Shown here: positions 26,139 to 43,606 of the stretch, piece after piece
Position numbering within the stretch: position 1 is the first letter of the stretch
Layout: every line of letters begins with the position of its first letter
Assembly (NCBI GenBank): GCA_963707505.1
Contig: CAVPQB010000003.1
Span: 256,001 to 320,000 of the forward strand
Origin: an uncultured Gemmatimonadales bacterium
GTDB lineage: Bacteria; Gemmatimonadota; Gemmatimonadetes; Gemmatimonadales; Gemmatimonadaceae
Reading direction: 5' to 3'
Length of the DNA: 64,000 nt
Notes under the pieces: model-generated
The model's database searches: none
Seen by the model: only the letters and a program-made list of their open reading frames with translations
What the model was told of the DNA's origin: nothing
Translations under genes and position numbers: made by a program

Positions 26139-26816
26139 TTACGCTAGCGACTTCAGCACCATTTTGCTAACTGCCTTGAGTGTATCAAACACTCCGTCGC
26201 CCTGAACCGCAACCGCCTCGAAATAGGGAGCCCGCCCGACCCATTCTCCGGTGGAGATCTGCTCGGTGAGATTTTCGTTGGCGTGATAGGGATCGGGGGT
26301 GAGAATCTGGCGGCTGGAGTCGTCGACTTCCCAGCCGGGATTCAGGTTTTCCTGGAGCTGTTGCAGCGGCGCGGCGTTCGACAGATCACGTTTGTTGTAC
26401 TGAATGACGAACGGCATCTTGGTGAGATCGTAGCCGTATTCCGCCATGTTGTCGTACAGATTCTGCATCGACTCGAGATTGGCTTCGGTGCGATCCAGCT
26501 GCGAGTCGGCGACGAAGACGACTCCGTCGACGTTCTTGAGGATCAGCTTGCGGCTCGCATTGTAGTAAACCTGTCCGGGCACCGTGTACAGATGGAACCG
26601 CGTCTTGAATCCGCGGATGGTGCCGAGGTCTACCGGCAGGAAGTCGAAGAAGAGAGTGCGCTCGGTTTCGGTCGCGAGCGAGATGAGCTTGCCGCGAGTA
26701 TCAGGCTTGACCTTGCCGTAGATGAACTCGAGGTTGGTCGTCTTGCCGCCCAGTCCGGGACCGTAGTACACGATCTTGCAGTTGATCTCGCGGGACGCGT
26801 AGTTGATCATCGACAT
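26139..26816 (-). CDS. mglA: MglA small Ras-like GTPase
   Basis: [48 protein letters not shown]. Confidence 0.95.
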
Positions 26817-26822
26817 CGCGCG

Positions 26823-27335
26823 CTACCAGTTGAAGAGCTCGTCGATTTCCGCATCTGCCCCATGTAGCAGATTCGGACGAGACGGCTTTTCTTCGCGCGA
26901 GCGCGAGAAGATCGCGTCAATCACCACAGTCAATTCCTGAACGGCCTGTTTCATTCGTAGTCGTACGAGCCCCAGGGTTGTACGGTTATCGAAGAGGACC
27001 ACGAGGATGAGCCGGCGCGCAACATCCGCGAGGTAGATGGATTCCTTCTCGCCCTGATGAAACAAGGTGCTGAAGTCGCTCTCTCCAACAAGTTTCGCTA
27101 GCTGATCGTTGGCGCTGAAATCGGCAGCTGTGAGGGTCGCGAAAGTCGTCGGGTCGAAGGTCGGCTGCTCGCCGACGGTCGCCACGAGCTGGCCGGACCG
27201 ATCGACCAGCAGCGCGGAGCGCGAGTTGGTATCGGCCAGGAATCGCTGGAGCGAGTGGGTAATGGCGACGGAATCATCTTCCGTGAACGACCACGTGCCC
27301 GACCCGCCTGACTTCGCGCTACCACCTGCCATCAT
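26823..27335 (-). CDS. mglB: MglB roadblock/LC7 GAP
   Basis: LVDRSGQ, LAKLVGE..F..LFHQGE, VLFD.RTTLGLVRL; directly upstream of mglA. Confidence 0.92.
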   Translation of the reverse strand: MMAGGSAKSGGSGTWSFTEDDSVAITHSLQRFLADTNSRSALLVDRSGQLVATVGEQPTFDPTTFATLTAADFSANDQLAKLVGESDFSTLFHQGEKESIYLADVARRLILVVLFDNRTTLGLVRLRMKQAVQELTVVIDAIFSRSREEKPSRPNLLHGADAEIDELFNW

Positions 27336-27625: not shown

Positions 27626-28218
27626 TCATTGCATGACTCTCCGTGCCGACAGAGCCTGGGCTATGGTCACCCCGTCAGCGTACTCCAGATCGCCACCGAC
27701 CGGGAGCCCGCGGGCAATCCGTGAAACGGTCAGCGGGTAGCCAGCGAGCCGTCGCTGAAGGTATAGCGCGGTCGCCTCTCCCTCGATGCTGGGATTGGTC
27801 GCAATTATCAGCTTCGCGCACTCCACCGGCAGCCACGCGCGCCTCCAGGTCACCGACAGCCAGGTCCTCGGGACCGATGCCGTCAAGCGGAGAGAGCCGG
27901 CCACCCAGGACGTGGTAGGTGCCGCGAAACTCGCCCGACCGCTCGATCGCACCGATATCCGACGCCTCCTCCACTGCGCAGACGAGCGCCGGATCTCGCG
28001 CGCGTATCGAGGCAGATCGAGCAGAGCTCGTTCTCGGTGAGGTTATGGCAGCGGGCGCACGGATGTACGCGCTCCGAAATCGTTACCAGCGCGTCTGCGA
28101 GTCTGCGGGTCTGGCCGGCGGGCTGCTTGAGCAGGTGATACGTGAGCCGCATCGCCGTCTTGCGGCCAATTCCGGGCAACTTCGAGAGCTCGGTCGCGAG
28201 GTCTTCTATCGCTGACAC
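27626..28218 (-). CDS. recR: Recombination mediator RecR (two frameshifts)
   Basis: LPGIG.KTA.RL, C4 zinc finger, [44 protein letters not shown] spread over three frames. Extra bases near 28000 and 27812. Confidence 0.95.
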
Positions 28219-28536
28219 TCAGAACGGGAGCTTGAACGGTAGATCCAGGCCGCCGGTAAGCTTGCCCATCTCGGACTTGGCCAGTTCGGCAGCCTTTTTC
28301 TGCGCGTCGCGAACAGCGACCATCACGAGATCTTCGAGCATTTCCACGTCGGTGGGATTCACGACGCTCGGATCGATCTTCACTCGTGTGACCTGTCCCT
28401 TTCCGTCGGCAGTGACGGTCACCATGCCGCCGCCGGCAGTTGCAGAAACGGTCTGCTTCTCCAGCTCTTCCTGGATTTCCTGCAAGCGACTCTGCATCTG
28501 CTGCGCCTGCTGCATCATCTTCATGAAGTCAGCCAT
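28219..28536 (-). CDS. ybaB: YbaB/EbfC nucleoid-associated protein
   Basis: MMQQAQQMQ, AGGGMVTV, DVEMLEDLV. Confidence 0.95.
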   Translation of the reverse strand: MADFMKMMQQAQQMQSRLQEIQEELEKQTVSATAGGGMVTVTADGKGQVTRVKIDPSVVNPTDVEMLEDLVMVAVRDAQKKAAELAKSEMGKLTGGLDLPFKLPF

Positions 28537-28560
28537 ATAGGAATCTAAAGAGTTGTACTC

Positions 28561-30053
28561 TCAGTCGAGCAATTCGAGGTCGAGCGCGTCGATTGCCGCA
28601 CCCAGTACCGGATCTTTCGCGCGCAGCATGCTGAGCACGCTCCGACCTCAGCTGATCGTCACTGAGTCGCTGAGGCGGTTCGATCCTGCGCCGACGCCTC
28701 CATGGCCGAGCGCATTCGCGCAGCAGAGCCTCGTTGACTGGCGCCGACCGGCGGAGCGGCGTTGTAGGGAGCGCGTCGGCGCTTCAGCAGGGCGGATAGC
28801 CGGCTTGCTACTGGCCGCGGTGCCGCGCGAACCGAGTCCGGTGCTGGCTCAGGTGCGCGCAATCGTTGCGCGCCAATCTCGATTGAGCACCGACGCCACC
28901 CGGCGCGCCGCCAGGACCGATACCGCGCAGAACTTCTTCGAGCGACAACGTGTGATCGAGCAACGCGAAACGCACCAGCAGCAACTCGATCAACAATTGC
29001 TGCTGGCCGCTCTTCCGGAATCGCGGCTCGAGGTCGCTCAAGACGTTGAGCATGCGAAGCACATCGCCGGATGCCAGCCGGTCCGAATTGGCGCGCAGGC
29101 GGTCGGTTGCGGCTGCCGAAACGTCCGGAACGCTTCCGCCGAGCAGAACTGCGAGCTGCGCGCGCAGAACGTCGGCGAATCCGGAGAGAAAGATTCCGAA
29201 GTCAACACCCTCGTCAGCAAGGCGGCGTACAGCGGCAAATACATCTCCGGCGCGGCGCTCGAACGATGATGTCGAGAATATCGAGGAATTCGTCTTCCGG
29301 TACCAGGCCGAGCGCTTCGCGAACGCGCTTCCGCCGTCACGCTGCCTTCGCCGAGTGACATCACCTGATCGGTGAGCGAGAGCGCGTCGCGCATCGAGCC
29401 GTCGGCGGCGCGCGCGATCATCGATCAACGCTTCGGGCTCGCGCGGAATCTTCTCCTCGTCCGAGAATGTACTCGAGGCGGCGCGATGATGTCCGCTGCG
29501 TCCGATGCGCTTGAGATCGAAGCGCTGGAGCCGGCTGAGCACGGGCGCGGCCGTCTGCGCGATCTTCTGCGGCTCGGTCGTCGCGAAGACGAATATGACG
29601 CGCGGCGGCGGCTCCTCGAGAATCTTGAGCAGCGCGTTCCACGCTTCGCGCGTGAGCATGTGCGCTTCGTCGACGATGTAGACCTTGTAGCGATCGTCGC
29701 CGGACGGCGCGTACATCGCGCGCTCGCGCAGGTCGCGCGCATCGTCGACGCCGCGGTTGGATGCAGCGTCGATCTCGACGACATCGAGACTCGACGAGCC
29801 ACTCCAGATGCGCTGGCAGCTGGTGCACACGCCGCACGGCTCGCCGTCAGCGCTGCTTGTTCTCGCAGTTGAGCGCCATCGCGAGGACGCGAGCGAGCGT
29901 CGTCTTGCCCGTTCCGCGCGGACCGCAGAGGAGATATCCGTGCGCAACCCGATCGCGCGCGATTGCGCCTCTCAGCGTGTTCGACACGTGGCCTTGGACG
30001 GCCACGTCGGCGAACGAGCGCGGGCGGTATTTGCGGGCTAGTGCGAGGGCCAT
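28561..30053 (-). CDS. dnaX: DNA polymerase III gamma/tau (multiple frameshifts)
   Basis: MALALARKYRP, GPRGTGKTT, EIDAASNRGVDD, IVDEAHML, ALLKILEEPP, ATTE, SRLQRF, GSMRDALSL, and C-terminal KDPVLGAAIDALDLELLD, in several frames. Confidence 0.95.
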
Positions 30054-30121
30054 GCGTCTGGTTTGCGGGGCGACACCCGCCCTTCGGAAGGTCCCGCGAG
30101 CGAGGCGGGATGAAGGGGGGC

Positions 30122-30217
30122 TCCAGGGAATCGGGGCAACGCAAGACACCGCATGCCGCTGCTACCTTCGGGGTCCTGACGGGGTTAGTGGGCTCGCGCC
30201 CCCCGGAAATCCCTGGA
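30122..30217 (-). ncRNA. ffs: Signal recognition particle RNA (small, 4.5S type)
   Basis: Helix-8 signature GTCAGG-ACC-loop-GGT-AGCAGC, terminal stem TCCAGGGA/TCCCTGGA, a TATATT -10 at 30227-30232, and the usual position upstream of dnaX. Confidence 0.93.
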
Positions 30218-30306
30218 ATATTCCGAAATATAACCGTCGCAACCGCTCACAGGTTGCAAGTTGTGACCGGCCCGCGAGGCGGGCCGGCGCGTGCAGCAAA
30301 GGCTTC

Positions 30307-30543
30307 TCAGGGCTTCTTGATCTTGACCGTGGGAACCTTGATCGTGGCAGAATCCTTCTTCACCTCGACCTTCGGAACCGCGACCTTGGTGCTGTCGACG
30401 CCAGTTTCCACTACCGGCGTGTGCACCGTATCGGTGACGGTGCCTACGACCGGCTTCTGCACCTCGTACGCCCCTTCTCCGGTCTTCTTGCACCCAGTTG
30501 CGGCGAGAGCAAGTACAGCGGCGGCGAAAATCACCTTTCTCAT
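30307..30543 (-). CDS. Small lipoprotein, Val/Lys/Thr-rich
   Basis: GGAGG RBS; MRKVIFAAAVLALAATGC lipobox; 78 aa. Confidence 0.85.
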   Translation of the reverse strand: MRKVIFAAAVLALAATGCKKTGEGAYEVQKPVVGTVTDTVHTPVVETGVDSTKVAVPKVEVKKDSATIKVPTVKIKKP

Positions 30544-30586
30544 CAAAGCCTCCGTTACGTGTGTGTGGTGTTCGCTAGCCCAAATG

Positions 30587-30601
30587 GCAAAAAGGGCGCC
30601 G
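30587..30601 (-). promoter_or_regulatory. Putative sigma54 promoter of the lipoprotein gene
   Basis: CGGCGCCCTTTTTGC (GG-N10-GC), about 44 nt upstream of the ATG. Confidence 0.5.
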
Positions 30602-30638
30602 TTGGAGCGGGGGAGCAATCACATGGCGGAGATGGTGA

Positions 30639-30707
30639 GGTCACAGCGGGGGTCACCGGCATGGGTCACGCGCATGGCCACGGGCATGGGTCACAGGCGG
30701 AGCTCAC
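30639..30707. repeat. Six GGTCAC-like units with 12-13 nt period
   Basis: GGTCAC/GGCCAC/GCTCAC at 30639, 30651, 30664, 30676, 30689 and 30702, in intergenic DNA. Confidence 0.8.
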
Positions 30708-30741
30708 CCGCGCCGCGCCCCACTGATCGTGGTCCCAATTT

Positions 30742-31419
30742 CTAATGTATATGGATTTTCGAACGATCGTTCGACCGAGCACGGGAGAGAAGCGCACGCA
30801 CTTCATCATCGCTCGTCTGGTCGAACACGGCGTACCAGAGTCCGACGGCTTGAAATGGTTCCGGGGTCACCAGACAAACAACTTCATCGGCCGAATGATC
30901 ACCTTCGCGAAACGATCTGCAGGTTTCGGCCGCAGCCACAGGAACCGCGACCACGATGCGCTGGGGCTCTTCACGTCTGAGAGCAAGCACTGCTGCGCGC
31001 ATGGTCGATCCCGTTGCAAGCCCGTCGTCGACGACTATCACGATGCAGCCGCGAATGTCGATGTCGGGTCTGTCGCCGCGATAGGCAAATTCGCGACGCT
31101 CGAGCTCATGCTGCTCCCGCGCGATGACCGAATCGACCGAACGCCGGTCCACACCAAGAGTGCGAATCACGTTATCGTCGAGCACGACTACACCGTCGCT
31201 GGCGATCGCACCCATTGCGAACTCTTCGTGGCCGGGCAGGCCGAGTTTGCGCACCAGAAATACATCGAGCGGTGCACCGAGCGCACGTGCAACTTCGTAC
31301 CCTACGGGCACTCCGCCGCGCGGGAGTGCAAGCACACGAACGTCCGAACGTCCAGCATACTCGTGCAGCGCTGCAGCGAGCTTGCGTCCAGCGTCGGCGC
31401 GGTCGTGAAACGGGGGCAT
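30742..31419 (-). CDS. Phosphoribosyltransferase family protein
   Basis: F.DRADAGR.L, LALPRGGVPV, VRKLG.PGHEE.AMGA, VVDDGLATGSTM, AVG.WY..F.Q.SD.EV. Confidence 0.92.
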   Translation of the reverse strand: MPPFHDRADAGRKLAAALHEYAGRSDVRVLALPRGGVPVGYEVARALGAPLDVFLVRKLGLPGHEEFAMGAIASDGVVVLDDNVIRTLGVDRRSVDSVIAREQHELERREFAYRGDRPDIDIRGCIVIVVDDGLATGSTMRAAVLALRREEPQRIVVAVPVAAAETCRSFREGDHSADEVVCLVTPEPFQAVGLWYAVFDQTSDDEVRALLSRARSNDRSKIHIH

Positions 31420-31423
31420 CACA

Positions 31424-31795
31424 TCACCGCTTACCCGAGCGATGGGTGGGATCGTTGCCGGCGCGGCGCGCCGAACGTGTCCGGTCCTGATGTGCACTGC
31501 GCTGCACGGCCGCGCGGATGTGCTCGTCTTCCTTGCTGGCCGCCTTTGCACGCGGCGAGAAAAGCTCGTTCGCCTGCGGCTCCGTCGATGGTCCTCCCGG
31601 CCCCGCTTCATCTTTCGCTATCTCGCGCGGAGTCCGATGACTGCTCGACGGATGCGATTCTGCCTCCGCCGGTGACCCTGCGGATGGAGCGGTTGCGGGC
31701 GGAGCGGTTGCGGGCGGCGACGCTGGCACAGGTCGCGCCGGCGTCCGAGATGCGGCTGGAGTATTCGGGGGCCTGGTCTGTTTGGAATCAGCCAT
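31424..31795 (-). CDS. Hypothetical Pro/Ala/Ser-rich disordered protein
   Basis: GGAG RBS, 123 aa, PATAP duplication; stop abuts the PRTase start. Confidence 0.6.
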   Translation of the reverse strand: MADSKQTRPPNTPAASRTPARPVPASPPATAPPATAPSAGSPAEAESHPSSSHRTPREIAKDEAGPGGPSTEPQANELFSPRAKAASKEDEHIRAAVQRSAHQDRTRSARRAGNDPTHRSGKR

Positions 31796-31846
31796 TCGTT
31801 CTCCGGTAGCTGGTGCACGTTCGACACGTTGCACCAGTGAGAGAGC

Positions 31847-31861
31847 GCAGGTATCGCGCCG
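31847..31861 (-). promoter_or_regulatory. Putative sigma54 promoter
   Basis: CGGCGCGATACCTGC (GG-N10-GC), about 52 nt upstream of ATG 31795. Confidence 0.4.
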
Positions 31862-31971
31862 CGACAGTTCGGAACGGCTGATGATCGCGTGCGATGCTAC
31901 CGGTGTCGTGCCCGTTCGACTCCAGGGTTGGTGCGATCGGGGGCAACCGAAGCAGCGCGGCCGTGCCGCCG

Positions 31972-32874
31972 TCAATCCTCGAATGCTTCGTGCTGGCGTT
32001 TGCGCATGTGGCGAAGCTCGTAGACCTGCGCCACCTCGCCGCCCAGTATGAAAACCATCGACGCGTAATACACCCACAACACGACTATCACGAGCGCCGC
32101 GATGGTGCCGGTGTACAGCGAGCCTGGCTTGAACGAGGTGACGTAGTACGCGAACGCAGATTTGGCGATCTCGAACATCACGCCGGTAAACGTGCAGGCG
32201 ATCAACGCGGTCTGCCAGCGCATCTTCTTGTACGGAAGATATTTGTAGAGGCCGAAGAACAGCGCCGCTATGAACACGAACGCCACGATTCGTCCGATCG
32301 TGTATTCAAGCGTGCCCATCACGTCCTGACGAATGCCGAGCGCCGCCAGCACGGCGACACCGCGCGACGAGGCTATCGCGATGTACGCGGACAGTCCTGT
32401 ATATGCGACGAACAGGAGCGACGACACGACGGTAACCTTCACGTCATACACCTTGCCGTCGATGATGCCGCGGTCCACCTCGATGTCGAATATCGCGTTG
32501 AGGATCGAGCGCAACGATCCGAACAGTCGTGTGGAGAACCAGATGAATCCGATCGCGGAGTACAGGCCTACTGCGCCGCGCGCTGCAATGATCTTTGCAA
32601 CCACGCTCGTCACGGGGTCGCTCGTACTCGGTGGCAGGAAGCGATTGACGAGAGCAACAATCTCGTCCGTCGCGGCAAGCGTGGACTGATTCAGCAGATA
32701 CGTAAGCGATGTGGCGAACAGCAGCAGGAATGGAACGATCGCGATCAGAATGTTGAACGAGATTCCGCCCGCGAGAAAAAAAATGTTATCATCGCCGCTA
32801 TTGTCCCACACGCGCCGCACGTAGTCAGCGAAGCCTACCCAGAATCGCTTGAGCCACGGGCGCTCCTGGCCCAC
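31972..32874 (-). CDS. YihY/virulence factor BrkB family membrane protein
   Basis: FLAGGISF..L.AIVPFLL, LYKYLP, FEIAK..FAYYV, LWVYYAS..FILGGEV. GTG start after AAGG. Confidence 0.9.
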   Translation of the reverse strand: MGQERPWLKRFWVGFADYVRRVWDNSGDDNIFFLAGGISFNILIAIVPFLLLFATSLTYLLNQSTLAATDEIVALVNRFLPPSTSDPVTSVVAKIIAARGAVGLYSAIGFIWFSTRLFGSLRSILNAIFDIEVDRGIIDGKVYDVKVTVVSSLLFVAYTGLSAYIAIASSRGVAVLAALGIRQDVMGTLEYTIGRIVAFVFIAALFFGLYKYLPYKKMRWQTALIACTFTGVMFEIAKSAFAYYVTSFKPGSLYTGTIAALVIVVLWVYYASMVFILGGEVAQVYELRHMRKRQHEAFED

Positions 32875-32884
32875 GGGATCGACC

Positions 32885-33289
32885 TTACAGGCTGTTCGCT
32901 TCGCGCCGCGCCGCCTTGTTCTCGGCGATTCGGCGCTCGAGATCAGAACGCGCTTCGCTCGCGGCATAGCGGCCCGCATCAACTGCGTCGAGGACCTGAT
33001 CCTGTCCGCGACGGACGGCCCTGCGGGCTGCACCGACGCGCTCGGTGACACGATCGCGCACCCCGTTCACCTGTGACGTCACGTTGTCGGCGACGTCAGT
33101 TGCGACGTTGCGCACGCGGTCACCTGCGCGCCGCGCGCGCGATTCGATCATGCGCCTGGTATCGGCGCCACTGCGAGGTGCCAGCAACAGCGCGATTCCA
33201 GCGCCGATCGCAACACCGATCAGGAGCGTCCCGATGCCGGGTTCGTCTCGCTCGATCACTACGAAGGGCTCACGTTCGAAGTCACGCAT
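32885..33289 (-). CDS. YtxH domain protein
   Basis: LLIGVAIGAGIALLLAPRSGADTR followed by an amphipathic helical region. Confidence 0.88.
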   Translation of the reverse strand: MRDFEREPFVVIERDEPGIGTLLIGVAIGAGIALLLAPRSGADTRRMIESRARRAGDRVRNVATDVADNVTSQVNGVRDRVTERVGAARRAVRRGQDQVLDAVDAGRYAASEARSDLERRIAENKAARREANSL

Positions 33290-33291
33290 GA

Positions 33292-34606
33292 TTACCTCTT
33301 CCCTGTGCGGGTCGTTTTGGATTTCGGTTTTGCGGCGGTCTTGCCGGCCGATGTCTTCTTTGGCGCGGCCTTCTCGATCGCAGGAGCTGGTGCAGCAACC
33401 GCCGCCGCGGCGAGGCGAAGATGTCGAGGCATTATGTCCTGCGCGGTCACGATCGTCCCGCGCGCCATGATCACCGCCCGCTCGACTGCATTCTTCAGCT
33501 CACGAACGTTACCGGGCCAGTGGTACGCGTGAATCCACGCCCACGCATCCTCGTCGAAACCGTTGAGTTGCTTGCTGTTCTGCCGCGAGAAGCGCAGCAG
33601 GAATTCGTTCGCGAGAAGCTGGATGTCGCTCACCCGCTCGCGCAGCGCGGGCAGAAACAGCTCGACCACTGCCAGACGATAGTAAAGATCCTCGCGCAAC
33701 TCGCCGTCTTCGAGCGCCTTCTGCAGATCCATGTTGGTCGCGGCAACTATCCGGATGTCGACCGCGATCTCCTTCTTGCCGCCCAGTCTGCGCACGCTGC
33801 GGCTCTCGATGGCGCGCAGCAGCTTCACCTGGATGTCGGTGGGCATCTCAGCGACTTCGTCGAGGAATATCGTGCCGCCGTCGGCCATCTCGAATGCGCC
33901 GGGCTTTTCGTTGATCGAGCCGGTGAAGGCGCCCTTTTCATGCCCGAATAATTCATTCTCGAGAATGTCCTTGGGCAGTGCCGCGCAGTTGAGCGCAAAG
34001 AACGGACCCTTGGCACGGTCGCTCTTGGAATGCACCGCGCGAGCGACCAGCTCCTTGCCCGTACCGGATTCACCGAGGATCAGTACCGATGCGCTCGATG
34101 GCGCAACCGCATCGATGATCTGGTAAACTCCACGCATCTCTTCGGACTGGCCGGTCAGCTCACCGTAGTGCGTGAGCGTCTCGAGCTTGGATGCAAGCTC
34201 GCGGTTTTTCTGGCCGATGGCGTACTTCTCCAGCGCTTTTGGAATGAGCGCCTTGAGGCGGTTCAGCTTCTCCGAATTGAGCGGCTTCTCGATGTAGTCG
34301 TATGCACCCTCGCGCATCGCCTGAACCGCGGAGTCGACGGTCGCCTGCCCCGTGATGATGATGCACTCCGTCGGAATGCTCTTGTCCTGAAGAGCCTTGC
34401 AGCAACGAGAGGCCGTCAACCCTGGGCATCATCAGATCAGCGAGGACTACACCGTAATCGCCGCCCTGAAGCTCATCCAGCGCCTTCTGGCCATCGGCGC
34501 AGATCGACACGTCGTATCCCTCGTCGGAAAGGATCGCGCTCAGGCCCTGTGTTATCGCCTGCTCATCGTCGGCGACCATGATTCTGGGCTTCGTGCTAGC
34601 TGCCAT
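33292..34606 (-). CDS. REC-AAA+ sigma54 activator lacking the C-terminal HTH (one frameshift near 34399)
   Basis: REC (VADDE, DLMMP, ITG, YIEKP), GESGTGKE, ELFGHEKGAFTGS, FLDEV, LREDLYYRL, WPGNVREL, then a Lys/Ala/Pro tail. Confidence 0.92.
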
Positions 34607-34620
34607 GCGTTGGTGTGTTC

Positions 34621-34911
34621 TCAGGAATGTGGATTGGGATCGGCCGGAGCAGACCCAGCGGAACGCGCACTGCGGTGCGACCCCGCAGCTTCCGCAACAT
34701 CAGCGACAAGATCAGCATAACGCTTGTGCAGTCGTGTAGCAGTGTCGAGCTGTTGCACGGCTGTTTCAATAAACGGTGCTACCTGCGTGACATCGGCGCC
34801 GCGCTCGACGCGGCTGCGCGCAACCTCGAGGTTGACAGCTACCCCGTTCAGCGCGTTCCGGACATCGTGGGCCAACTGTCTGAGCTCGGCCGCGGTATCA
34901 CGCTCATTCAC
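34621..34911 (-). CDS. Stand-alone HisKA/DHp-like protein
   Basis: 96 aa with an H-box LAHDVRNALNGV and a second helix. No sensor or HATPase domain, and 6 and 14 nt gaps to the neighbours. Confidence 0.75.
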   Translation of the reverse strand: MNERDTAAELRQLAHDVRNALNGVAVNLEVARSRVERGADVTQVAPFIETAVQQLDTATRLHKRYADLVADVAEAAGSHRSARSAGSAPADPNPHS

Positions 34912-34917
34912 AAAAAC

Positions 34918-36333
34918 TCAATCACTCAGATCCGCGTCGTCAGGTGCCGCTTCGACTACAGCAAGGTCGGGGTGCGGCATCGGACGATGTTGTGCGGGAG
35001 TATGAACGTACTTCGCGACCAGCCCACGCGTGTCGTGGATGTTCAGCTGCCTGAAAAGGAACCCGAACTTCTCGTCGTACGCCTTCGCCATCGCCTCCTT
35101 CACGTCGGCAGGCATGTCCCAGATCTTACGCTTGAACGGACCGAGCGCTTTCTTGCGGGTCTTGTAATAGAATTGCTCGTCCGTGTCCGTGGGCTTGCGC
35201 TCGTCCTTCGTGTTCACGTCCAGCCACGCGTAGATCTCCTTGCGCAGTGATTCGTGCATGTGGTCGAACAACATGTTCTGAAAATTCGTCGCGAGGTGAA
35301 TCTCGCAAGTGCCGGTACCCGGGAACTTGTGGAACAGCTCGTCCGGAAGCGTCGAGGCGCCGTGTTGCACTGCACCCGCGAGACCGTATTCCTTGCGCGC
35401 GATATCGGACAACGTGGTGAGCGTGCCGAAGTCGATCGCGACTTCCTTGATCGATCCGTCGGGAAGCACTATGCCACCGTGCGAGGTACCCGACTGCACG
35501 CTGACCTTGGACAGACCTTCTGTGCCGGGTGTTTCGCGACCAAGAAGGCTGTTGAAGCCATCCATGTAGGCACGCAGCTCTTCGGGTGTCGAGTTCTCGG
35601 TTCCGACTTCGCCGATCTCGCCGCCGAGTGAGATGGTGATGCCTGCTGGCTGAAGACCGCGAATGAAGGCAGCGATGTCCGCGCACTGCTCGACGTTGGT
35701 GCGCTGTTGCTCTGCGAGCGTCGGCCTGGAGAGATCGACGAGCGTGGATGTGTCGATATCGATATTGTAGAAGCCCGCTGCGACCGCTTCCACCGCGAGT
35801 TGCTTGACCGCGCCAGCTTCCTGATCCGGACTCGTCGCGAACTTCTTCGCGCTGATCTGAAAATGGTCGCCCTGAATGAAGAGCGGGCCGCGGAAGCCCT
35901 CGCGAATCGCGGCCGCAAGCATTACCGAGGCATACTCGCCCGGCCGCTGATCGGTGTAGGCAATCTCGGAGCGCGCGATCTCGAGCACGAACGCGCCTGC
36001 GTTCAGCTTGTTCGCCGCACGAAATACCGCGCGCGCCGTGTCGTACGCCATTCCGCGCACGTTGATCGCCGGAACGGTGACATCGTCGTACGCACCCTTG
36101 CCGCGCGCGATGTAAAGGTCGTGGATCGACGCGGGATGAATGCCGACAGCCTGCGCTATCTCCCAGATCAGCCAACGCGCGTCAGCCTTCTGGTCCTCGT
36201 CGCCGAATACCGCCTGGCGAACGAGCGTATCCATGTACGGCCCGGCGACGCGCGACGCATCGGCGACAGAAAGGGCACCATCGTTGACGGTGACCGCACC
36301 TTCGAACAACTGTTCGGTTTTCGTCTGAGTCAT
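34918..36333 (-). CDS. Class II fructose-bisphosphate aldolase family protein
   Basis: VPAINVR, QGDH, DIDTS, GEIGEVG, GTSHGG, VQHGAS; directly after pgi. Confidence 0.88.
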   Translation of the reverse strand: MTQTKTEQLFEGAVTVNDGALSVADASRVAGPYMDTLVRQAVFGDEDQKADARWLIWEIAQAVGIHPASIHDLYIARGKGAYDDVTVPAINVRGMAYDTARAVFRAANKLNAGAFVLEIARSEIAYTDQRPGEYASVMLAAAIREGFRGPLFIQGDHFQISAKKFATSPDQEAGAVKQLAVEAVAAGFYNIDIDTSTLVDLSRPTLAEQQRTNVEQCADIAAFIRGLQPAGITISLGGEIGEVGTENSTPEELRAYMDGFNSLLGRETPGTEGLSKVSVQSGTSHGGIVLPDGSIKEVAIDFGTLTTLSDIARKEYGLAGAVQHGASTLPDELFHKFPGTGTCEIHLATNFQNMLFDHMHESLRKEIYAWLDVNTKDERKPTDTDEQFYYKTRKKALGPFKRKIWDMPADVKEAMAKAYDEKFGFLFRQLNIHDTRGLVAKYVHTPAQHRPMPHPDLAVVEAAPDDADLSD

Positions 36334-36341
36334 GGTTGAAT

Positions 36342-37727
36342 TTAGCGTCCCTGCGACCAGCGCGGGTCGGGCTTGGGGAGGGCGTCCCACTGGGCCTTTG
36401 CGGCCTCGGCGCCAGGCCTGCCCAGCAGCGCATACGCGAATTGCTTGCCCAACTCGACGCCGGGCTGGTTGAATGCGTTGACTCCGTACATCTGGCCCGC
36501 GTAGGCGGTGGCGAGCTCGAACATCATCATGAGCGCGCCAACGCCGCGAGCATCGACCTTCTCCATTCGGACCGTGAGATTGCTCCGGCCGCGTTTGGCC
36601 AGCGCGCCAGCCGTGGCTCGCTGTTCGATGTTGAGGAGTTCGCCCAGCGTGTGGCCGCCGAGGTAGCCAAGCTCGGTGACGTGCTCGAACGCGGATGGGA
36701 TAACGATGTCGGTCCCGTGATCTTCGACGGCGATGAATGCGATCACCTTGTTGGCCGGTCCTTCCATGAACGATTGAACCTGGCTGTGCTGATCGGTCGA
36801 ACCGAGCGCTGGGAGCGGCGTGCTTCCAACTGATTTCCCGTCCCCGCGATGCTTGCCGAGTGATTCTGCCCAGAGCTGCACGAACCACGCGGCGAAATCC
36901 CGCAATGGATCCGCATAGGGCATGAGCACATCGACTACGCGCCCGTGACGTACGTCGCTCATGTAGAAGAGAGAGCCGATTATTCCCGCGGGATTGTCCA
37001 TCAGGTCAGTCGTCGCGCACCTGTCGAGCATCTCGCCGGCGCCCACGAGGAGGTCCGCAACGTTTATTCCGAGCAACGCCGCCGGAAGCGTTCCCACCGG
37101 AGTGAGCACGCTGTAACGCCCTCCCACTCCGGGCGGAATGTCAAGCGCCGGGACACCGAGCTCGCCTGCGAGTGGTCTCAAAGCGCCGGTCTTGGGATCG
37201 GTGACGAAAACGAAGTGATCCGCCACCTTGAGGCCGGCGTTCGTCACGCGCTCATGAGCGATGAGAAACTGCGACATCGTTTCTGCAGTGCCACCGGATT
37301 TCGAAGTGACGATGAACAGCGTGCGCTCCAATGCGAGCCTGTCGAGCAATGCCGCAATCGTCACCGGATCGATGTTGTCGAGCACGTGCAGGCGCGGATG
37401 GCCCGATCGTTCGTCGCCAGATAGCTCGTTCCAGCCAGAGCTGCACAGAGCGGTCTTGAGCGCGATCGGACCGAGCGCGGATCCACCGATTCCGAGTATG
37501 ATCGCGTCATCGTAGCGCCCGCGACTGCGTCCTGCAAAATCGATTGCCTGTTGCAGCAGCGGGGCATTGCGCGGCAGATTCATGAAATCGGCGACGCCAT
37601 CGCTCCGCAGCGTTTCGACTCCCTTGTGAACAGTGGCGAATGCGCCGTACGCCTCGTCCCATTCCTCGTCCGTCACGCCGTTATCGACGGCGCTTGCCAT
37701 CATGTTGGTAAAGTCGATCGAAATCAT
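36342..37727 (-). CDS. pgi: Glucose-6-phosphate isomerase
   Basis: GIGGSALG, SKSGGTAET, VGGRYSV, QLWAESLGK, DQHS, FNQPGVE.GK. Confidence 0.96.
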   Translation of the reverse strand: MISIDFTNMMASAVDNGVTDEEWDEAYGAFATVHKGVETLRSDGVADFMNLPRNAPLLQQAIDFAGRSRGRYDDAIILGIGGSALGPIALKTALCSSGWNELSGDERSGHPRLHVLDNIDPVTIAALLDRLALERTLFIVTSKSGGTAETMSQFLIAHERVTNAGLKVADHFVFVTDPKTGALRPLAGELGVPALDIPPGVGGRYSVLTPVGTLPAALLGINVADLLVGAGEMLDRCATTDLMDNPAGIIGSLFYMSDVRHGRVVDVLMPYADPLRDFAAWFVQLWAESLGKHRGDGKSVGSTPLPALGSTDQHSQVQSFMEGPANKVIAFIAVEDHGTDIVIPSAFEHVTELGYLGGHTLGELLNIEQRATAGALAKRGRSNLTVRMEKVDARGVGALMMMFELATAYAGQMYGVNAFNQPGVELGKQFAYALLGRPGAEAAKAQWDALPKPDPRWSQGR

Positions 37728-38500
37728 ATCCGTACCGTCAATCCGTCGAAAGCTGGTTGGATGTCGCGCGGCAGCTCTGCCTCGAGATCGGCGTGAAAGT
37801 TGTCGTGTGTGAGATGAGTCAGGTACGTGCGCTCGGCGCCCAGCTCCCTTGCCGCACTGATCGCTTCAGGCAGGCTCAGGTGGCTCGGATGGTCGGTTCG
37901 GAACAACGCGTTGATGACAAGCACCTTCGCTCCACGGAGTATTGCGGCGGCTTCGGGTGGGATGCTCTTGGCGTCGGTCACGTATGCCAGATCGCCGATA
38001 CGGTATGCAAAAACCGTGACAAGGCCGTGCGGCACAGCGACGGGCGTGACGACGGCGTCGCCGATCGATACGGGTACACCCGGAACAAGTGCTTCAGCCC
38101 GCCCTTCCGGCTTGCTCGTGCCAGGCAACACGCGCATGCTCTCATCGAATATGTACGGAAAGCGCTGGCGCAGGCTGTCGAGTGTCGTGGGCGGTCCGTA
38201 CATCGTCAGTGGCGCAGCCCGGCGATTCGTGATCGCACGAATATCGTCCAAACCGTGCGTGTGATCGGCGTGCTCATGCGTGAATAGAACCGCGTCCACG
38301 CGATCGATGCCGTTTGCGATCAGTTGGAGTCGGAGCTCGGGTGGCGTGTCGATCAGCAGTCGCGTTCCGCCGTTGGTCTCGACCAGCGCCCCTACCCTGC
38401 CGCGCTTGTCGCGCGGATCGGGCGATCTGCACACGGCGCAGCCGCAGCCGATCTGGGGCACGCCGAAGCTCGTGCCGGTGCCGAGGAAGGTGAGCTTCAC
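37724..38500 (-). CDS. Metallo-beta-lactamase fold hydrolase (PhnP/Lip-like)
   Basis: LGTGTS.GVP..GC.C.VC, THEHADH, YVTD, THLTH. Confidence 0.9.
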   Translation of the reverse strand: MKLTFLGTGTSFGVPQIGCGCAVCRSPDPRDKRGRVGALVETNGGTRLLIDTPPELRLQLIANGIDRVDAVLFTHEHADHTHGLDDIRAITNRRAAPLTMYGPPTTLDSLRQRFPYIFDESMRVLPGTSKPEGRAEALVPGVPVSIGDAVVTPVAVPHGLVTVFAYRIGDLAYVTDAKSIPPEAAAILRGAKVLVINALFRTDHPSHLSLPEAISAARELGAERTYLTHLTHDNFHADLEAELPRDIQPAFDGLTVRI

Positions 38501-38554
38501 AACGACGTCACTGGAGCGCTTTGCGCCGCGCTCGGCTCGAGCTCCGGTGTTGAA

Positions 38555-39964
38555 TCACACGACCTCCACTTTGAGCAGATTGGTCGTGCCTGGAATTCCG
38601 AATGGGTGTCCCGCAGTGAAAATCACCCGGTCGCCGGCGGCAGCGAGGTTCAGCTCGCGCACTACCACCTTTCCGACTTCGGCCATCTCGGTGTACGTCG
38701 GGCGCGATTCGGCGACGTGCGGAATCACACCCCACAACAGGGCGAGCTGGTTGCGAGTGCGCGTGTTGTCGGTGAGCGCAAGCACGGGCACGGGCGGGCG
38801 ATGCGACGAGACGATGCGCGCTGAAAAGCCGCTCTTGGTGATGACAACGACGAGTGGCGCGCCGAGCATCCTCACGGCGGCAACGGTCGCAGCCGCGATC
38901 GCGACTTCAGTTGTCACGATTCCTATCTGCCGATTGCGTGAATCGTGGAACTGACGTGAGGGCGGATGTTGCTCGATCTCCGCGATGATGCGACTCATCG
39001 CCTCGACCGCCAGTCGTGGATAACTTCCCGCGGCGGTTTCAGCGGAGAGCATCACGGCATCGGTACCGTCCAGTATTGCGTTCGCCACGTCGCTCGCCTC
39101 GGCACGAGTGGGGCGAGGGTTCGTCACCATCGACTCCAGCATCTGCGTCGCGGTAATCACCGGACGCCCGATCTGATTCGCGAGCGCGATGATCTTCTTC
39201 TGCGCGACGGGCACCTCTTCGAACGGCAGCTCGACGCCAAGATCGCCGCGCGCAACCATGACGCCATCCGATGCACGGATGATGGATTCGATGTTGGCGA
39301 GCGCTGCATCCTTCTCGATCTTCGCTACTATGTTCATCCACGGCGGCAACAGCGCACGCAGCGATGTGATGTCCTCGGCGCGACGCACGAAGCTGAGCGC
39401 GAGATAGTCCAGCTCCTGCTCGATCGCGAACGTAACGTCCGCGATGTCCTTCTCCGTCAGCGAGGGAGCGGAGACCTGCACACCGGGCAGATTCAATCCC
39501 TTGTGGCTTCGGAGCACGCCACCGTGAATGACGCGCGCGTGGACGCGCGGCGCCTGCACGTCGAGCGCTACGAGCTCGATCAGCCCATCGTCGACGAGAA
39601 TGCGGTCGCCGACCTTCACATCGTTGGCGAGTTCTGTATACGTGACCGGTATCTCGCCGCCCATCTCCTCGCCTTCATGCACGAGCGTTACATCGTCGCC
39701 CGGCTTGAGCGGGATGCTCAGTGCCAGATCGCCGATGCGGATGCGTGGGCCCTGAAGATCGCCCAGTATCGCGATTGGCTGCCCGAGCTCGTCGGCTATC
39801 CGGCGGACTGTGCGGATGCGCTCGGCGTGATCGGCGTGCGTACCGTGGGAGAAATTCAGGCGCGCGACGTTCATGCCCGCTTCCGCGATCGCCAGGATCG
39901 CGTCGTGCGTTGCAGTCGATGGACCGAGCGTACAGACTATTTTGGTGCGGCGAATATACGGCAT
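38555..39964 (-). CDS. pyk: Pyruvate kinase
   Basis: TKIVCTLGP, ARLNFSHG, DLQGP, AKIE, MVARGDLGVE, ATQMLESM, PTRAE, MLSAET. Confidence 0.97.
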   Translation of the reverse strand: MPYIRRTKIVCTLGPSTATHDAILAIAEAGMNVARLNFSHGTHADHAERIRTVRRIADELGQPIAILGDLQGPRIRIGDLALSIPLKPGDDVTLVHEGEEMGGEIPVTYTELANDVKVGDRILVDDGLIELVALDVQAPRVHARVIHGGVLRSHKGLNLPGVQVSAPSLTEKDIADVTFAIEQELDYLALSFVRRAEDITSLRALLPPWMNIVAKIEKDAALANIESIIRASDGVMVARGDLGVELPFEEVPVAQKKIIALANQIGRPVITATQMLESMVTNPRPTRAEASDVANAILDGTDAVMLSAETAAGSYPRLAVEAMSRIIAEIEQHPPSRQFHDSRNRQIGIVTTEVAIAAATVAAVRMLGAPLVVVITKSGFSARIVSSHRPPVPVLALTDNTRTRNQLALLWGVIPHVAESRPTYTEMAEVGKVVVRELNLAAAGDRVIFTAGHPFGIPGTTNLLKVEVV

Positions 39965-41076
39965 CAGATCTTGCTGGAGTGAAGCTGCGCGACCTTGGCC
40001 TTGATGCCGGCGCTCAGAGTCTCGAACGATTTTTCGAAGCTCGCAATGCCCTCGCGCAAAAGTGTATCGGTCACGTCGTTGAGGCTGACTCCCGCCTGCG
40101 CGATCGCGGCGAGCTCCGCGCGCGCCTGAGCCATGTCGGCATCCACCGTGCGCGCAACTACACCGTGGTCTCGGAAATCCTCGATCGTTTTCGGCGGCAT
40201 GGTGTTCACCGTGTTGGGACCGATCAGATTTTCGACGTAAAGCACGTCACGGTACGCCGGATTCTTGGTACTCGTGCTGGCCCACAGTGGGCGCTGCACG
40301 CGCGCACCCTTTGCCTCGAGCACGTTCCAGCGTGCTCCGCCAAACTTCGTTACGAAAAGCTGATAGGCCATCTTGGCGTTGGCGATGGCGGCCTTCCCCT
40401 CGTACTGGCGCGCGCTTCCGCCGATCGCCTCGAGACGTTTGTCGACCTCGGTATCCACGCGGCTGACGAAGAAGCTCGCTACGGACGCGATCTTATCGAT
40501 TGGCAATCCCTTCGAGACGCGCGCCTCGAGTCCATCGATGTACGCGTCGATCACACGCTCATGCGCCTTGACTGCGAAAAGCAACGTGATGTTGACGTTG
40601 ATGCCGTCGGTGATGAGCTGCCTCACGGCCTTGGCACCCTCCACCGTCCCCGGAACCTTCACGAGCAGATTGGGACGGTTGACCGTCGCCCAGAGCCGGT
40701 GTGCTTCCTCGATTGTTGCTGCCGCATTGTTCGCCAGATCGGCGGAGACTTCAATCGAAACGTAGCCGTCGTCACCATTGGTGCGATGATAGACATCTGC
40801 GAATACGTCACACGCGTCACGGACGTCCTGCGTCTCCACCAGCTCGAACAACTGCTTGGCGTCGAGTGACGCCGGCGCTGCGCGAAGCTGGTCGTCGTAC
40901 GCATTGCCTTCGGCGAGCGCCTTCTGAAAGATGGTTGGATTCGAGGTCATCCCGGTGAGCATGTCGTCCGTGAGGCGGCGCTCAAGGTCACCGTTATGCA
41001 GCATTGTACGATCTATGTAATCGAGCCAGATCGACTGGCCAGCGTCATGTAACGCCTGAAGGCGATGGTTGTCCAT
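39964..41076 (-). CDS. tal: Transaldolase
   Basis: QSIWLD, GMTSNPTIF, VSIEV, VKVP, NITLLF, ASFFVSR, QRPLWAST. Confidence 0.95.
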   Translation of the reverse strand: MDNHRLQALHDAGQSIWLDYIDRTMLHNGDLERRLTDDMLTGMTSNPTIFQKALAEGNAYDDQLRAAPASLDAKQLFELVETQDVRDACDVFADVYHRTNGDDGYVSIEVSADLANNAAATIEEAHRLWATVNRPNLLVKVPGTVEGAKAVRQLITDGINVNITLLFAVKAHERVIDAYIDGLEARVSKGLPIDKIASVASFFVSRVDTEVDKRLEAIGGSARQYEGKAAIANAKMAYQLFVTKFGGARWNVLEAKGARVQRPLWASTSTKNPAYRDVLYVENLIGPNTVNTMPPKTIEDFRDHGVVARTVDADMAQARAELAAIAQAGVSLNDVTDTLLREGIASFEKSFETLSAGIKAKVAQLHSSKI

Positions 41077-42439
41077 TGGTGTTTTTGGGTTGACGGTCAA
41101 CTAAATACGCAGCGGAGCGGAAGAGCAAGAGAATCTGACGGTATCCCAGCGATTCGATCACGGCGTACGCGAGCAGCCTGGCGTCCCTGCTTCGCGTGTC
41201 GTTACCGGGAAAAAACGTGATCTGGAACACCACGCTCCATATAGATAGGAGTATGCCGTATCCGACCACCGACGCCAAGTAGGCCCAGGCAAATGACGAA
41301 TCGAGCACGCCTGTCGTGAGCCCCACGACGAGGCCAAGATAGCCCGCCAGCTCCAGAATCGGCGCAATAATGACCCCTAGCCAGAAATACGGCATCGCAA
41401 CGAGCCCGAACATCCCATATTCCGGGTTCAGCAGCATTACCGAGTTGCGAACGAGTGCGCGGCGCAAGCCGTGGATCCAGGCTCTGCGCGTTCGGCCGAT
41501 CGCCCTCATTTCCCCCGAAACGACGAACCATGCCACAGGGTCGGGGATCACCGGCATCGTGGCGTTGATGCCGTTATCTGTCAGATATCGCGACAGCCGC
41601 ATGGCGATGTCGACCGCTGGCACGTCTACATTCGGGTCGAAGCCACCCATGCCGAAGATGTGCTCTCGCTTGAACATCACCGGGTTGCTCGGCACTACGA
41701 TATTGCTCGCGACGCGATTCCAGCCCATCCGCAGATAGACGAAATTCCGCAGAAATTCAACAGTCTGGCAACCGTCGACCCAGCCGCGGCCGCGCCGGAG
41801 TGTGATCTTCCCGTCCCGCAACTGCGCACCACTCGCTGGCCGAAGAATGCCGCTCGCGCACGCCACGGACCGGTCCAACAGAAATGGGCGCGATAGTCTG
41901 AGCAACGCGTCACGCTCGAAGACGACGTTCGGGCCAGCCGCAACGGCATGGGGATATCGCGCGGCATTGATAGCGGCGTTCAACGCGTCGCCTACCGATG
42001 TGTCCGGCATGTCGATGCACAGCAGTCGCGGATGCGTACGCGATCGGTAGTAAGCTCGCACGGGCCTGGTCCGCACGTTGATAGTGAACGCCGGAGGCAC
42101 CTCGTACAGTTGCAACGCAGCGACGAGGTTGCCGAGGGAATCCTCCGACGTACCGTCGACGACGAGAATTACCTCGAAGCGCGGATAGTCGAGTGCGAGC
42201 AGCATCGCCGCGATCTCGACCGGCGGCATCGGCGAATGTTGTAGCGAAGCTATCACGGAAATGGGAGGGAGCGCGTCGGTCCCTACCAGTGCGTGGAAAT
42301 ATTCGTCGTCGGCCAGCTGCCAGTGCGACCACAGTTCCGGAACCGCGCACATCAGCAGAATTGCATGAAACGAGTTGATGACAAGAAAGAAAATCATGAT
42401 CGTCATCATCACCACGAACAGAATTCCGGCGATCGTCAT
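41045..42439 (-). CDS. GT2 glycosyltransferase-like membrane protein with degenerate catalytic motifs
   Basis: LDYP.FEVI.V.DG, DALNAAIN.ARYP, ERDALLRL, R.GW, PDPVAW, C-terminal TMs. DxD, GED and QxxRW are absent. Confidence 0.85.
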   Translation of the reverse strand: MTIAGILFVVMMTIMIFFLVINSFHAILLMCAVPELWSHWQLADDEYFHALVGTDALPPISVIASLQHSPMPPVEIAAMLLALDYPRFEVILVVDGTSEDSLGNLVAALQLYEVPPAFTINVRTRPVRAYYRSRTHPRLLCIDMPDTSVGDALNAAINAARYPHAVAAGPNVVFERDALLRLSRPFLLDRSVACASGILRPASGAQLRDGKITLRRGRGWVDGCQTVEFLRNFVYLRMGWNRVASNIVVPSNPVMFKREHIFGMGGFDPNVDVPAVDIAMRLSRYLTDNGINATMPVIPDPVAWFVVSGEMRAIGRTRRAWIHGLRRALVRNSVMLLNPEYGMFGLVAMPYFWLGVIIAPILELAGYLGLVVGLTTGVLDSSFAWAYLASVVGYGILLSIWSVVFQITFFPGNDTRSRDARLLAYAVIESLGYRQILLLFRSAAYLVDRQPKNTNGQPSPSGVT

Positions 42440-43494
42440 CCTGCTGACAACTCCGCGACGCTGGCTTCCGACAGTCCGATTACCAGCATCGCCATGTCGC
42501 GCGCATACCTGTCGGCATTGTCGAGCGCTTCTGAAAGCGCCTGCTTGCCCGCGGGCCCCGTCGAAGCCAGTGAAAGCCCAGCACGGAAGCGAACCCACCA
42601 GTTGCTGTCGGTGAGCGCGCGAGACAGCTCCTGCACCGTGCGCTCGTCCGTCGAGCCCGACAGCGCACGTGCCGCCTGCGCGCGCACGCGCCAATCCGAA
42701 TCGCGAAGCATCGAGAGCAACTTCACCTGAACGGTGTCTCCCGATCTTCGGCGCAGCACGCGCGCAACGGCGACGCGCACTTCCGGGTGCGGATGCGTCG
42801 AAAGACTTGCGATACGCGTCATGCAGTCCGCGTCATTCAGTACGGCCGCGGCATGGATGTACGCATACAGTTTATGCGGCGGCGCGTCTGCGCGGATCCG
42901 CGCAAGCAGCATCGGGCCGGCCAGTGACGCGTACCCCTGCAATACACTGAGCTGATATGCACGCACCGCTGACGATGCGGACGAGAGACCGTCGATGACA
43001 GCGATGAGCAACTCCTCATCGGCGTAGCGTTTCAGGCACGTGGTCGCCGCGCTCTGTACGGCAGGGTGGGAGTCCGACAGTAACTGCAGGATCCTGGCAC
43101 TATCCTGCGCGCTCGCTAGAAGAGAGAGCGTGCGCGCCGCAGCCAGTCGTTTCCACCACAACAGCGAGCCAGCGCCGTCGATCGCCTGACGCACCCACGG
43201 CTCGCGTCGCAGCATGTCTACCAGCGCGTCGCGCTCGGCGGGATGCACGCGCTCCAGTCCGAGCCAGACCAGGGCCTGCGCGGTGTCGGCGTTCGACGCA
43301 CCCCGCAGCGCGCTGAGCACTTCAGGCGCGCCGAGTGCGCCGGAGAGCAGCCGTCGTGCATTGCCGACGCCTTCGTGAGCTCCCGCACCGGCCATGCTCG
43401 CGCGCGATCGCCGCGCGTAGTCGAGCGCCCCAGCCAGCACGGCCAAACCGATCTGCGACAGGCCGATTACGACTCCAACGAAGCCGTAGGTCAA
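42436..43494 (-). CDS. HEAT-repeat protein with N-terminal TM (start uncertain)
   Basis: Repeats LSDSHPAVQSAA, HPHPEVRVAVARVL, LRDSDWRVRAQAARAL, LTDSNWWVRFRA. ATGA overlap with the GT2 gene. Confidence 0.85.
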   Translation of the reverse strand: MTYGFVGVVIGLSQIGLAVLAGALDYARRSRASMAGAGAHEGVGNARRLLSGALGAPEVLSALRGASNADTAQALVWLGLERVHPAERDALVDMLRREPWVRQAIDGAGSLLWWKRLAAARTLSLLASAQDSARILQLLSDSHPAVQSAATTCLKRYADEELLIAVIDGLSSASSAVRAYQLSVLQGYASLAGPMLLARIRADAPPHKLYAYIHAAAVLNDADCMTRIASLSTHPHPEVRVAVARVLRRRSGDTVQVKLLSMLRDSDWRVRAQAARALSGSTDERTVQELSRALTDSNWWVRFRAGLSLASTGPAGKQALSEALDNADRYARDMAMLVIGLSEASVAELSAG

Positions 43495-43606
43495 CTCGAA
43501 CGACCGTTCGAACGGCGGTTTGAAAAGGGTCGCTGACCAGGCTTTGACATCGGCTCAAATATGCCAGTCTGGCGCAATGGGCGTCACCCCACAGCGTGGC
43601 CGAATT

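Follow-up and report, generated by a model that had tools for sequence, protein, structure and literature searches.

The window, by which we mean the whole 64,000-nucleotide stretch of Gemmatimonadaceae DNA analysed, carries on its minus strand a gene for an NtrC-type sigma54 activator, with a gene for a stand-alone DHp protein immediately upstream and a ytxH-like gene immediately downstream (Table 1). The ATG of ytxH, at 33289, follows the activator stop by 2 nt, as the first-pass annotation had stated, and the C-terminal activator sequence quoted in that annotation was exact up to the stop. Elsewhere in the window, an MglA-like GTPase and an MglB/roadblock-like protein are encoded as a pair (26139-27335, minus strand), recognised by eye.

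Table 1. Genes and features at the activator locus (positions in the window).
Feature	Position	Strand	Remarks
NtrC-type sigma54 activator gene	33292..34606	-	Receiver domain (REC), AAA+ domain and basic tail, without HTH
Stop codon of the activator gene	33292-33294	-	
Receiver domain, read across the indel	34261..34582	-	PF00072 in both frames
Extra base (frameshift in the receiver domain)	34399..34399	.	Absent in L002, L003 and the X2 contig
Sigma54-activator AAA+ core (Walker A, Walker B, sensor I, Arg fingers)	33658..34155	-	PF00158, E 5e-69
Sigma54-contact loop, variant GAFTGS	33916..33933	-	
AAA+ lid with sensor II	33418..33642	-	PF25601
Low-complexity Lys/Ala/Pro tail	33292..33417	-	Variable linker and conserved basic end
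Terminal motif K-x-K-x-K-x-x-K/R-x-G-K-R	33292..33330	-	Last two codons overlap the likely ytxH RBS
Stand-alone DHp (HisKA-like) protein gene, 96 aa	34621..34911	-	Trimmed kinase-dead histidine kinase; predicted phosphotransfer partner
ytxH-like gene	32885..33289	-	PF12732, synteny; directly downstream, likely translationally coupled
yihY/BrkB-family membrane protein gene	31972..32880 (start approximate)	-	PF03631, synteny; conserved downstream neighbour
Class II aldolase-like gene	34918..36300 (start approximate)	-	PF01116, synteny; last of the upstream tal-pyk-MBL-pgi-fba cluster

The activator reading frame is interrupted within the receiver domain. The indel that had been suspected near 34399 consists of a single extra base. 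This base is missing from the orthologues L002 and L003 (96-98% identical) and also from a run X2 contig that represents a related strain (one contig, depth 3.2). The L002 orthologue, which is 96-97% identical to the window copy, is intact and encodes 437 aa. Since the base is absent from both the orthologues and the related-strain contig, the frameshift is most likely an assembly error. The recR and dnaX genes (27626-30149; names assigned by eye) and some other genes in the window also seem to be split between frames, consistent with an indel-prone assembly.

The motor of the protein has the features of a sigma54 activator. In an alignment of 61 orthologues, 60-93% identical to L002, the Walker A, Walker B, sensor I and sensor II motifs and the Arg fingers were invariant. 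The acidic pocket, phospho-Asp, Thr and Lys of the receiver domain were also conserved, D13, D14, D57 and K107 being invariant and T85 being present in at least 90% of these sequences. Of 156 unique orthologues, 153 have GAFTGS as the sigma54-contact loop and the three outgroups have GAFTGA; GAFTGS was also found in all of the best 120 database homologues; the same change (A6S) is listed for Escherichia coli PrpR (PMC3162934). Sigma54 itself (rpoN) is encoded in the same genome. Together, the AAA+ motifs, the GAFTGA-type loop and the presence of rpoN mark the protein as a predicted sigma54 activator, and the combination of an N-terminal receiver domain bearing the phospho-Asp with the lack of an HTH is that of group 5 (FlgR/CtcC-type). 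In NCBIfam, none of the best 25 models, FlgR included, was passed.

The first-pass annotation had proposed that no Fis-type HTH followed the AAA+ domain, and this was confirmed. Pfam places the end of the AAA lid at residue 334 of the 3' ORF (375 aa), leaving 41 residues. HTH_8 gave no Pfam match in the activator at E≤1, nor any at E≤0.001 in a scan of the C-termini, in which all 11 other sigma54 activators of the genome passed the HTH_8 cut-off. The gene is present in 20 of the 21 other genomes of the genus, and HTH_8 was detected at E≤0.1 in none of the 20 same-genus copies with a complete end, including that of the window (the L008 copy, which runs off a contig edge, was excluded; the unpublished genomes G007 and G017 are included, and G017, G044 and G112 enter the counts for the family). 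Intact HTH-less orthologues occur in 18 other genomes of the genus, and in two further copies the 5' end is truncated or carries a frameshift. PF02954 was listed for none of the best 120 database homologues, and, among the 118 of these that could be scored, 101 had no HTH remnant and 17 had a degenerate HTH. The annotation had also pointed out that an HTH might have been lost through an assembly deletion; contigs from two runs span 33348-33626 and 33100-33371 without gaps. The gap-free contigs, the same-genus copies and the database homologues rule out an HTH deleted by the assembly or concealed in another frame. The loss of the HTH is real and extends throughout this soil genus. The taxa of 80 related loci were Gemmatimonadaceae or its higher ranks.

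Outside the genus, a different C-terminus was found. Family loci were fetched for part of the gene-bearing genomes, picked to span genera, and the complete-ended set comprised 151 unique proteins (148 from the family and three outgroups from other orders) after two broken ORFs had been dropped. A degenerate Fis-like HTH, followed by the same basic tail, was present in 121 of the 151, all of them among the 148 Gemmatimonadaceae proteins; the others were the 20 proteins of the HTH-less genus, six from one genus with the last helix only, L049 with none, and the three outgroups. These outgroups have a degenerate HTH, GAFTGA, no basic tail and a similar gene neighbourhood. HTH_8 was matched at E≤0.1 in only 16 of 57 family C-termini. 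The recognition-helix region (12 residues past the turn) had a mean net charge of -1.4 in 115 degenerate HTHs, versus +1 to +4 in the HTH-bearing paralogues (10 of 11 scored, one having been missed by the pattern). The Fis-type HTH with a basic recognition helix that characterises group 1 (NtrC/ZraR-type) is absent in the genus, and in its relatives the helix is acidic. The AlphaFold (AF2) model of the degenerate HTH of a relative shows three helices, all confidently predicted, and beyond them an unstructured tail. A Foldseek search with this model placed the HTHs of ZraR, Fis and NtrC1/4 on top, all of them weak matches (best E 0.045), with none at E≤0.001. Given how well the family conserves the degenerate HTH, this domain may retain some role.

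These observations bear on the first-pass annotation as a whole. Its identification of an HTH-less sigma54 activator with intact motor motifs, an rpoN gene in the genome and a conserved basic end stood, but the idea that the tail had replaced the HTH did not, since the same tail already lies behind a degenerate HTH in most family orthologues. The tail therefore most likely predates the loss of the HTH. DNA binding by the tail and a global scope, which the annotation also put forward, are predictions. In the simplest order on quick trees rooted on the outgroups, decay of the recognition helix and HTH was likely followed by gain of the tail and then by deletion of the remnant HTH. The six proteins keeping only the last helix (L079 and L120-L124) represent a half-way state. 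The quick tree nested L049 among the HTH-bearing sequences (SH-aLRT 99), suggesting a separate HTH loss in this single genome, although a single clade of L049 and the HTH-less genus was not rejected by the AU test (p 0.23).

The tail is Lys/Ala/Pro-rich and net basic, with a net charge of +10 over 49 residues, 8 Lys in 40 residues and 6 K/R in the last 15, and the equivalent region of a relative is predicted to have no secondary structure (pLDDT about 50), so that the sequence features of a histone-like lysine-repeat tail are present. Tails with at least 8 Lys and at least 60% K/A/P in the last 40 residues occur in 4 of the 2733 ORFs called in this genome by our own script. Whether orthologues keep the tail had been set out as a check, and they do: a basic end, defined as at least 5 K/R and a net charge of at least +4 in the last 15 residues, was found in 142 of the 148 family proteins and in none of the three outgroups. 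Within the genus, the stretch from the lid to the end varies in length (44-75 aa), but the frame to the terminal motif is kept in all 20 copies. Lys residues at -12, -10 and -8 are likewise present in all 20, with both Lys codons used, and variation by codon position in the tail end was greatest at third positions (0.55 versus 0.29 and 0.20). The tail end is under selection, with its basic character conserved at the protein level.

Four other basic-tailed proteins were checked: a NYN/LOTUS protein, a SET-domain protein, a beta-lactamase-family protein and one without a Pfam match. As one of these belongs to the beta-lactamase family, Lys/Ala/Pro tails are not confined to nucleic-acid binders. 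The tails of the NYN/LOTUS protein (L130:763-2616) and the SET-domain protein (L132:569-1201; both G000 C3) are similar to that of the activator. A 233-aa ORF without a Pfam match (L133:657-1355, G000 C6) has a long Lys/Ala/Pro tail, and we take it to resemble a PhaF/AlgP-type protein.

The end of the tail also has features at the nucleotide level. In the genus, terminal Arg codons are rare AGA/AGG codons in 17 of 18 cases, versus 9% genome use, and AAA accounts for 46 of 96 tail Lys codons, versus 16% genome-wide. The last two activator codons are likely to be the Shine-Dalgarno site of ytxH. With AAA enriched and the end doubling as a ribosome-binding site, part of the conservation of the tail end may act at the RNA level. 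The distance to ytxH is greater in other genera (12-107 nt), where that gene has an RBS of its own and the basic end is still there, so RNA constraint is not the whole cause of the tail; the tail as a mere by-product of the ytxH RBS was rejected as sole cause and kept as a partial one. In L060, about nine copies of a 7-base unit, arranged as a short tandem repeat, fill the spacer between the activator and ytxH.

The upstream partner gene had been overlooked in the first-pass annotation. In most other genera, the partner is a protein of about 190-220 aa with a confidently modelled CA-like fold (AF2 pLDDT 95) that resembles kinase CA domains (VIA Z about 14). This CA-like domain is absent altogether in the genus of the window, in which the partner is DHp-only. 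The DHp His is invariant (52/52 and 50/50 sequences, in overlapping sets). Of the 52 sequences, 48 have E/D at H+1 and just 34 have Asn at H+4. Neither an N-box nor a G2 box was found in any of 150 representative partner proteins. The outgroup partner L110:3243-3920 has a full HATPase_c domain with intact N, G1 and G2 boxes and is therefore probably still an active kinase. Partner matches at E<1e-25 were obtained in 121 genomes, 118 of which have the activator. A further 30 genomes have the activator but no such match: 29 belong to genera with a short or fused partner, and in the remaining one the locus is at a contig edge. In L114-L117, from other genera, the activator and the partner are both missing between fba and ytxH/yihY. 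In L049, L067, L174 and L188, a DHp remnant and the receiver domain of the activator share one reading frame with no stop between them, suggesting a DHp-REC-AAA+ fusion in this small clade. With its invariant DHp His and, in relatives, a CA-like domain without ATP motifs, the upstream gene is, as judged from these comparisons, a predicted kinase-dead ChpT-like partner co-evolving with the activator. A scan of five partner proteins with PF10090 (ChpT family) gave one match, below the cut-off, in the outgroup L112.

The activator gene was found in 148 of 251 Gemmatimonadaceae genomes and in 44 of 68 genera. Its loss is not tied to loss of sigma54, rpoN being present in 139 of 141 genomes checked. 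A flagellar (FlgR-like) role was also rejected: the gene does not track flagellin, which was found in 21 of 88 genomes with the activator versus 30 of 53 without it, counts in which related genomes are not independent. Sigma54 promoters were sought with a hand-weighted -24/-12 matrix. Upstream of called starts, there were fewer matches than in shuffled sequences; genome-wide, 16 of the 43 top sites lay outside ORFs, versus a background of 18% and 9-19% for wrong spacings, and the genes behind 20 selected candidate sites were mixed. No site scoring at least 9.5 was found in positions 30001-44000 of the window, and no target promoter could be assigned to the activator from these scans. Three points argue against a global essential role: 103 of the 251 family genomes yielded no copy of the gene, it does not track flagellin and it has no assignable target.

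Some observations concern the HTH-bearing activators of the genome. Four candidate -24/-12 sites (G000 C4:527594, C3:679985, C4:1003999 and C6:663565) lie within about 2 kb of genes for such activators and precede a pilin-like gene, an ABC-permease-like gene, hsp20 and an unknown gene. In one paralogous activator (L024:1078-3501, G000 C3), the reading frame stays open beyond the HTH for about 350 residues that resemble an outer-membrane protein, possibly through the loss of a stop codon.

The reading that we prefer, with a probability of about 0.45, is that of an HTH-less, enhancer-independent activator fed by a phosphorelay through the DHp partner, with the lysine-rich tail serving as a non-specific DNA tether. 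Some hybrid kinase would phosphorylate the partner DHp His, from which the phosphate would be handed to the REC Asp of the activator; the activator would then form a ring and remodel the sigma54 holoenzyme at whichever -24/-12 promoters were occupied, with the six basic tails raising the local concentration of the ring on DNA. Enhancer independence is the most secure of these elements, and we consider it probable. The partner seems rather better explained as a phosphodonor than as a phosphatase, and for DNA binding by the tail the balance tips slightly in favour. Precedents exist for parts of this scheme: H. pylori FlgR acts without DNA binding (PMC3930126), an HTH-less DctD250 activates nearly all sigma54 promoters, albeit about ten-fold more weakly than the cognate activator at one of them (PMC3844500), and lysine repeats are described as over-represented among DNA-binding proteins in GC-rich bacteria (PMC5714199). 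Against it, an indiscriminate activator would cross-talk with the 11 enhancer-bound paralogues.

The tail is the element on which the most serious competing explanation turns. The protein might act from solution, as FlgR does, with a tail that is a protease tag, binds polyphosphate or RNA, or merely reflects the purine-/A-rich translation start of ytxH. Basic C-terminal ClpX tags are known, and the histone-like protein AlgP binds polyphosphate. The rare AGA/AGG codons and AAA enrichment in the genus are in keeping with this explanation, as is the activity of FlgR without a tether (PMC3930126). We nonetheless regard it as unlikely, although worthy of consideration, because the basic end is kept where ytxH starts further downstream with its own RBS, and because the Lys positions are invariant with both codons in use and third positions vary most. 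Promoter specificity could also be retained, if the protein were recruited by a DNA-binding protein or formed a mixed ring with an HTH-bearing paralogue, the degenerate HTH or the tail providing a protein-contact surface. The action of Rhodobacter sphaeroides FleT with FleQ is a precedent for mixed rings, and the 11 paralogues in the same genome, the conserved residues and confident fold of the degenerate HTH, and the fixation of the family-specific GAFTGS change all fit such an arrangement. It is nevertheless improbable, given that no conserved DNA-binding gene was found at the locus by synteny and that the degenerate HTH has been deleted in one genus and in L049, and partly in another genus.

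The residues around the DHp His raise a further alternative, in which the activator is a negative regulator or phosphate sink, sequestering the sigma54 holoenzyme or draining phosphate, and the DHp protein is its phosphatase. E/D at H+1 with Asn at H+4 is the motif of HisKA phosphatases, both are frequent in the partner, and no donor kinase was found. However, the partner His is better conserved than the H+4 Asn, and all ATPase and sigma54-contact residues, none of which a sink needs, are conserved among orthologues as little as 60% identical to L002; we therefore hold out little prospect for this explanation. An assembly artefact or decaying pseudogene, for which the frameshift in the window copy and the other apparent frameshifts in the window might speak, can be set aside almost entirely: the intact copies without an HTH in 18 further genomes of the genus and the 101 HTH-less proteins among the 118 scored database homologues contradict it, and the part concerning HTH loss has already been refuted.

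HTH-less sigma54 activators are an already known class, about 4% of activators lacking a DNA-binding or sensing domain according to PMC3162934; the natural examples without an HTH named in the papers cited here are FlgR, CtcC and FleT. Searches of the openly accessible literature, main texts only, brought up no paper about the locus or the partner, and none about an HTH-less activator with a lysine-rich tail. An HTH-less activator beside 11 enhancer-bound paralogues raises the question of how specificity is achieved without enhancers. The family provides a natural series (decayed HTH, decayed HTH with tail, half HTH, tail only, gene lost) that runs with a parallel trimming of the partner kinase, making it possible to test directly what the HTH remnant and the tail do. 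It also gives a lead on how genes are regulated in a soil phylum that is abundant and mostly uncultured. A bolder and rather doubtful extension of our preferred reading would make this system a sigma54 master override of the Gemmatimonadaceae, in which the kinase would have become a phosphotransferase, the HTH would have been traded for a histone-like tether and one signal would fire the whole regulon. If true, the override would act atop about ten dedicated enhancer-bound activators. In view of its coupling to ytxH and yihY, both of which are associated with general stress, it might constitute a general stress response.

The closest architectural counterparts are the group 5 activators, H. 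pylori FlgR and Chlamydia trachomatis CtcC, which likewise consist of REC and AAA+ domains without an HTH (PMC7175178, PMC7482065). The window activator is not an orthologue of FlgR: it scores 294 bits against the FlgR model, which has a cut-off of 750 and ranks below the AtoC and PrsR models. Unlike FlgR and CtcC, it ends in a basic tail, has no flagellar link and is paired with a kinase-dead protein in place of a full sensor kinase. Chlamydia has one activator (PMC3162934), whereas the genome of the window encodes 11 HTH-bearing paralogues. The partner shares with Caulobacter ChpT, a kinase-like protein described as unable to bind ATP or autophosphorylate (PMC3433190), a DHp domain and, in relatives of the window copy, a CA-like domain without ATP binding. 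In a Foldseek search with the partner, ChpT (4fpp) had the highest query TM-score among the matches listed (0.56, rank 47). Unlike ChpT, the partner has an ordinary HisKA-type H-box, and its best PDB sequence match is ZraS; separate origins for the two proteins are likely. The CA-like domain has also been deleted in the genus.

The tail is comparable to the lysine-repeat tails reported for actinobacterial TopA, HupB/HupS, Ku and HrdB (PMC5714199), being Lys/Ala/Pro-rich in a GC-rich bacterium, but it is much shorter (8 Lys in 40 residues) and is carried by a transcription activator, and its binding to DNA is a prediction. The fate of the HTH also has a parallel. Campylobacter jejuni FlgR keeps a C-terminal domain that is dispensable for activation and has been lost in its Helicobacter relative (PMC3930126), which is the same path of decay followed by loss as that of the Gemmatimonadaceae HTH; the Gemmatimonadaceae series, in contrast, spans 151 complete orthologues and includes the gain of a basic tail.
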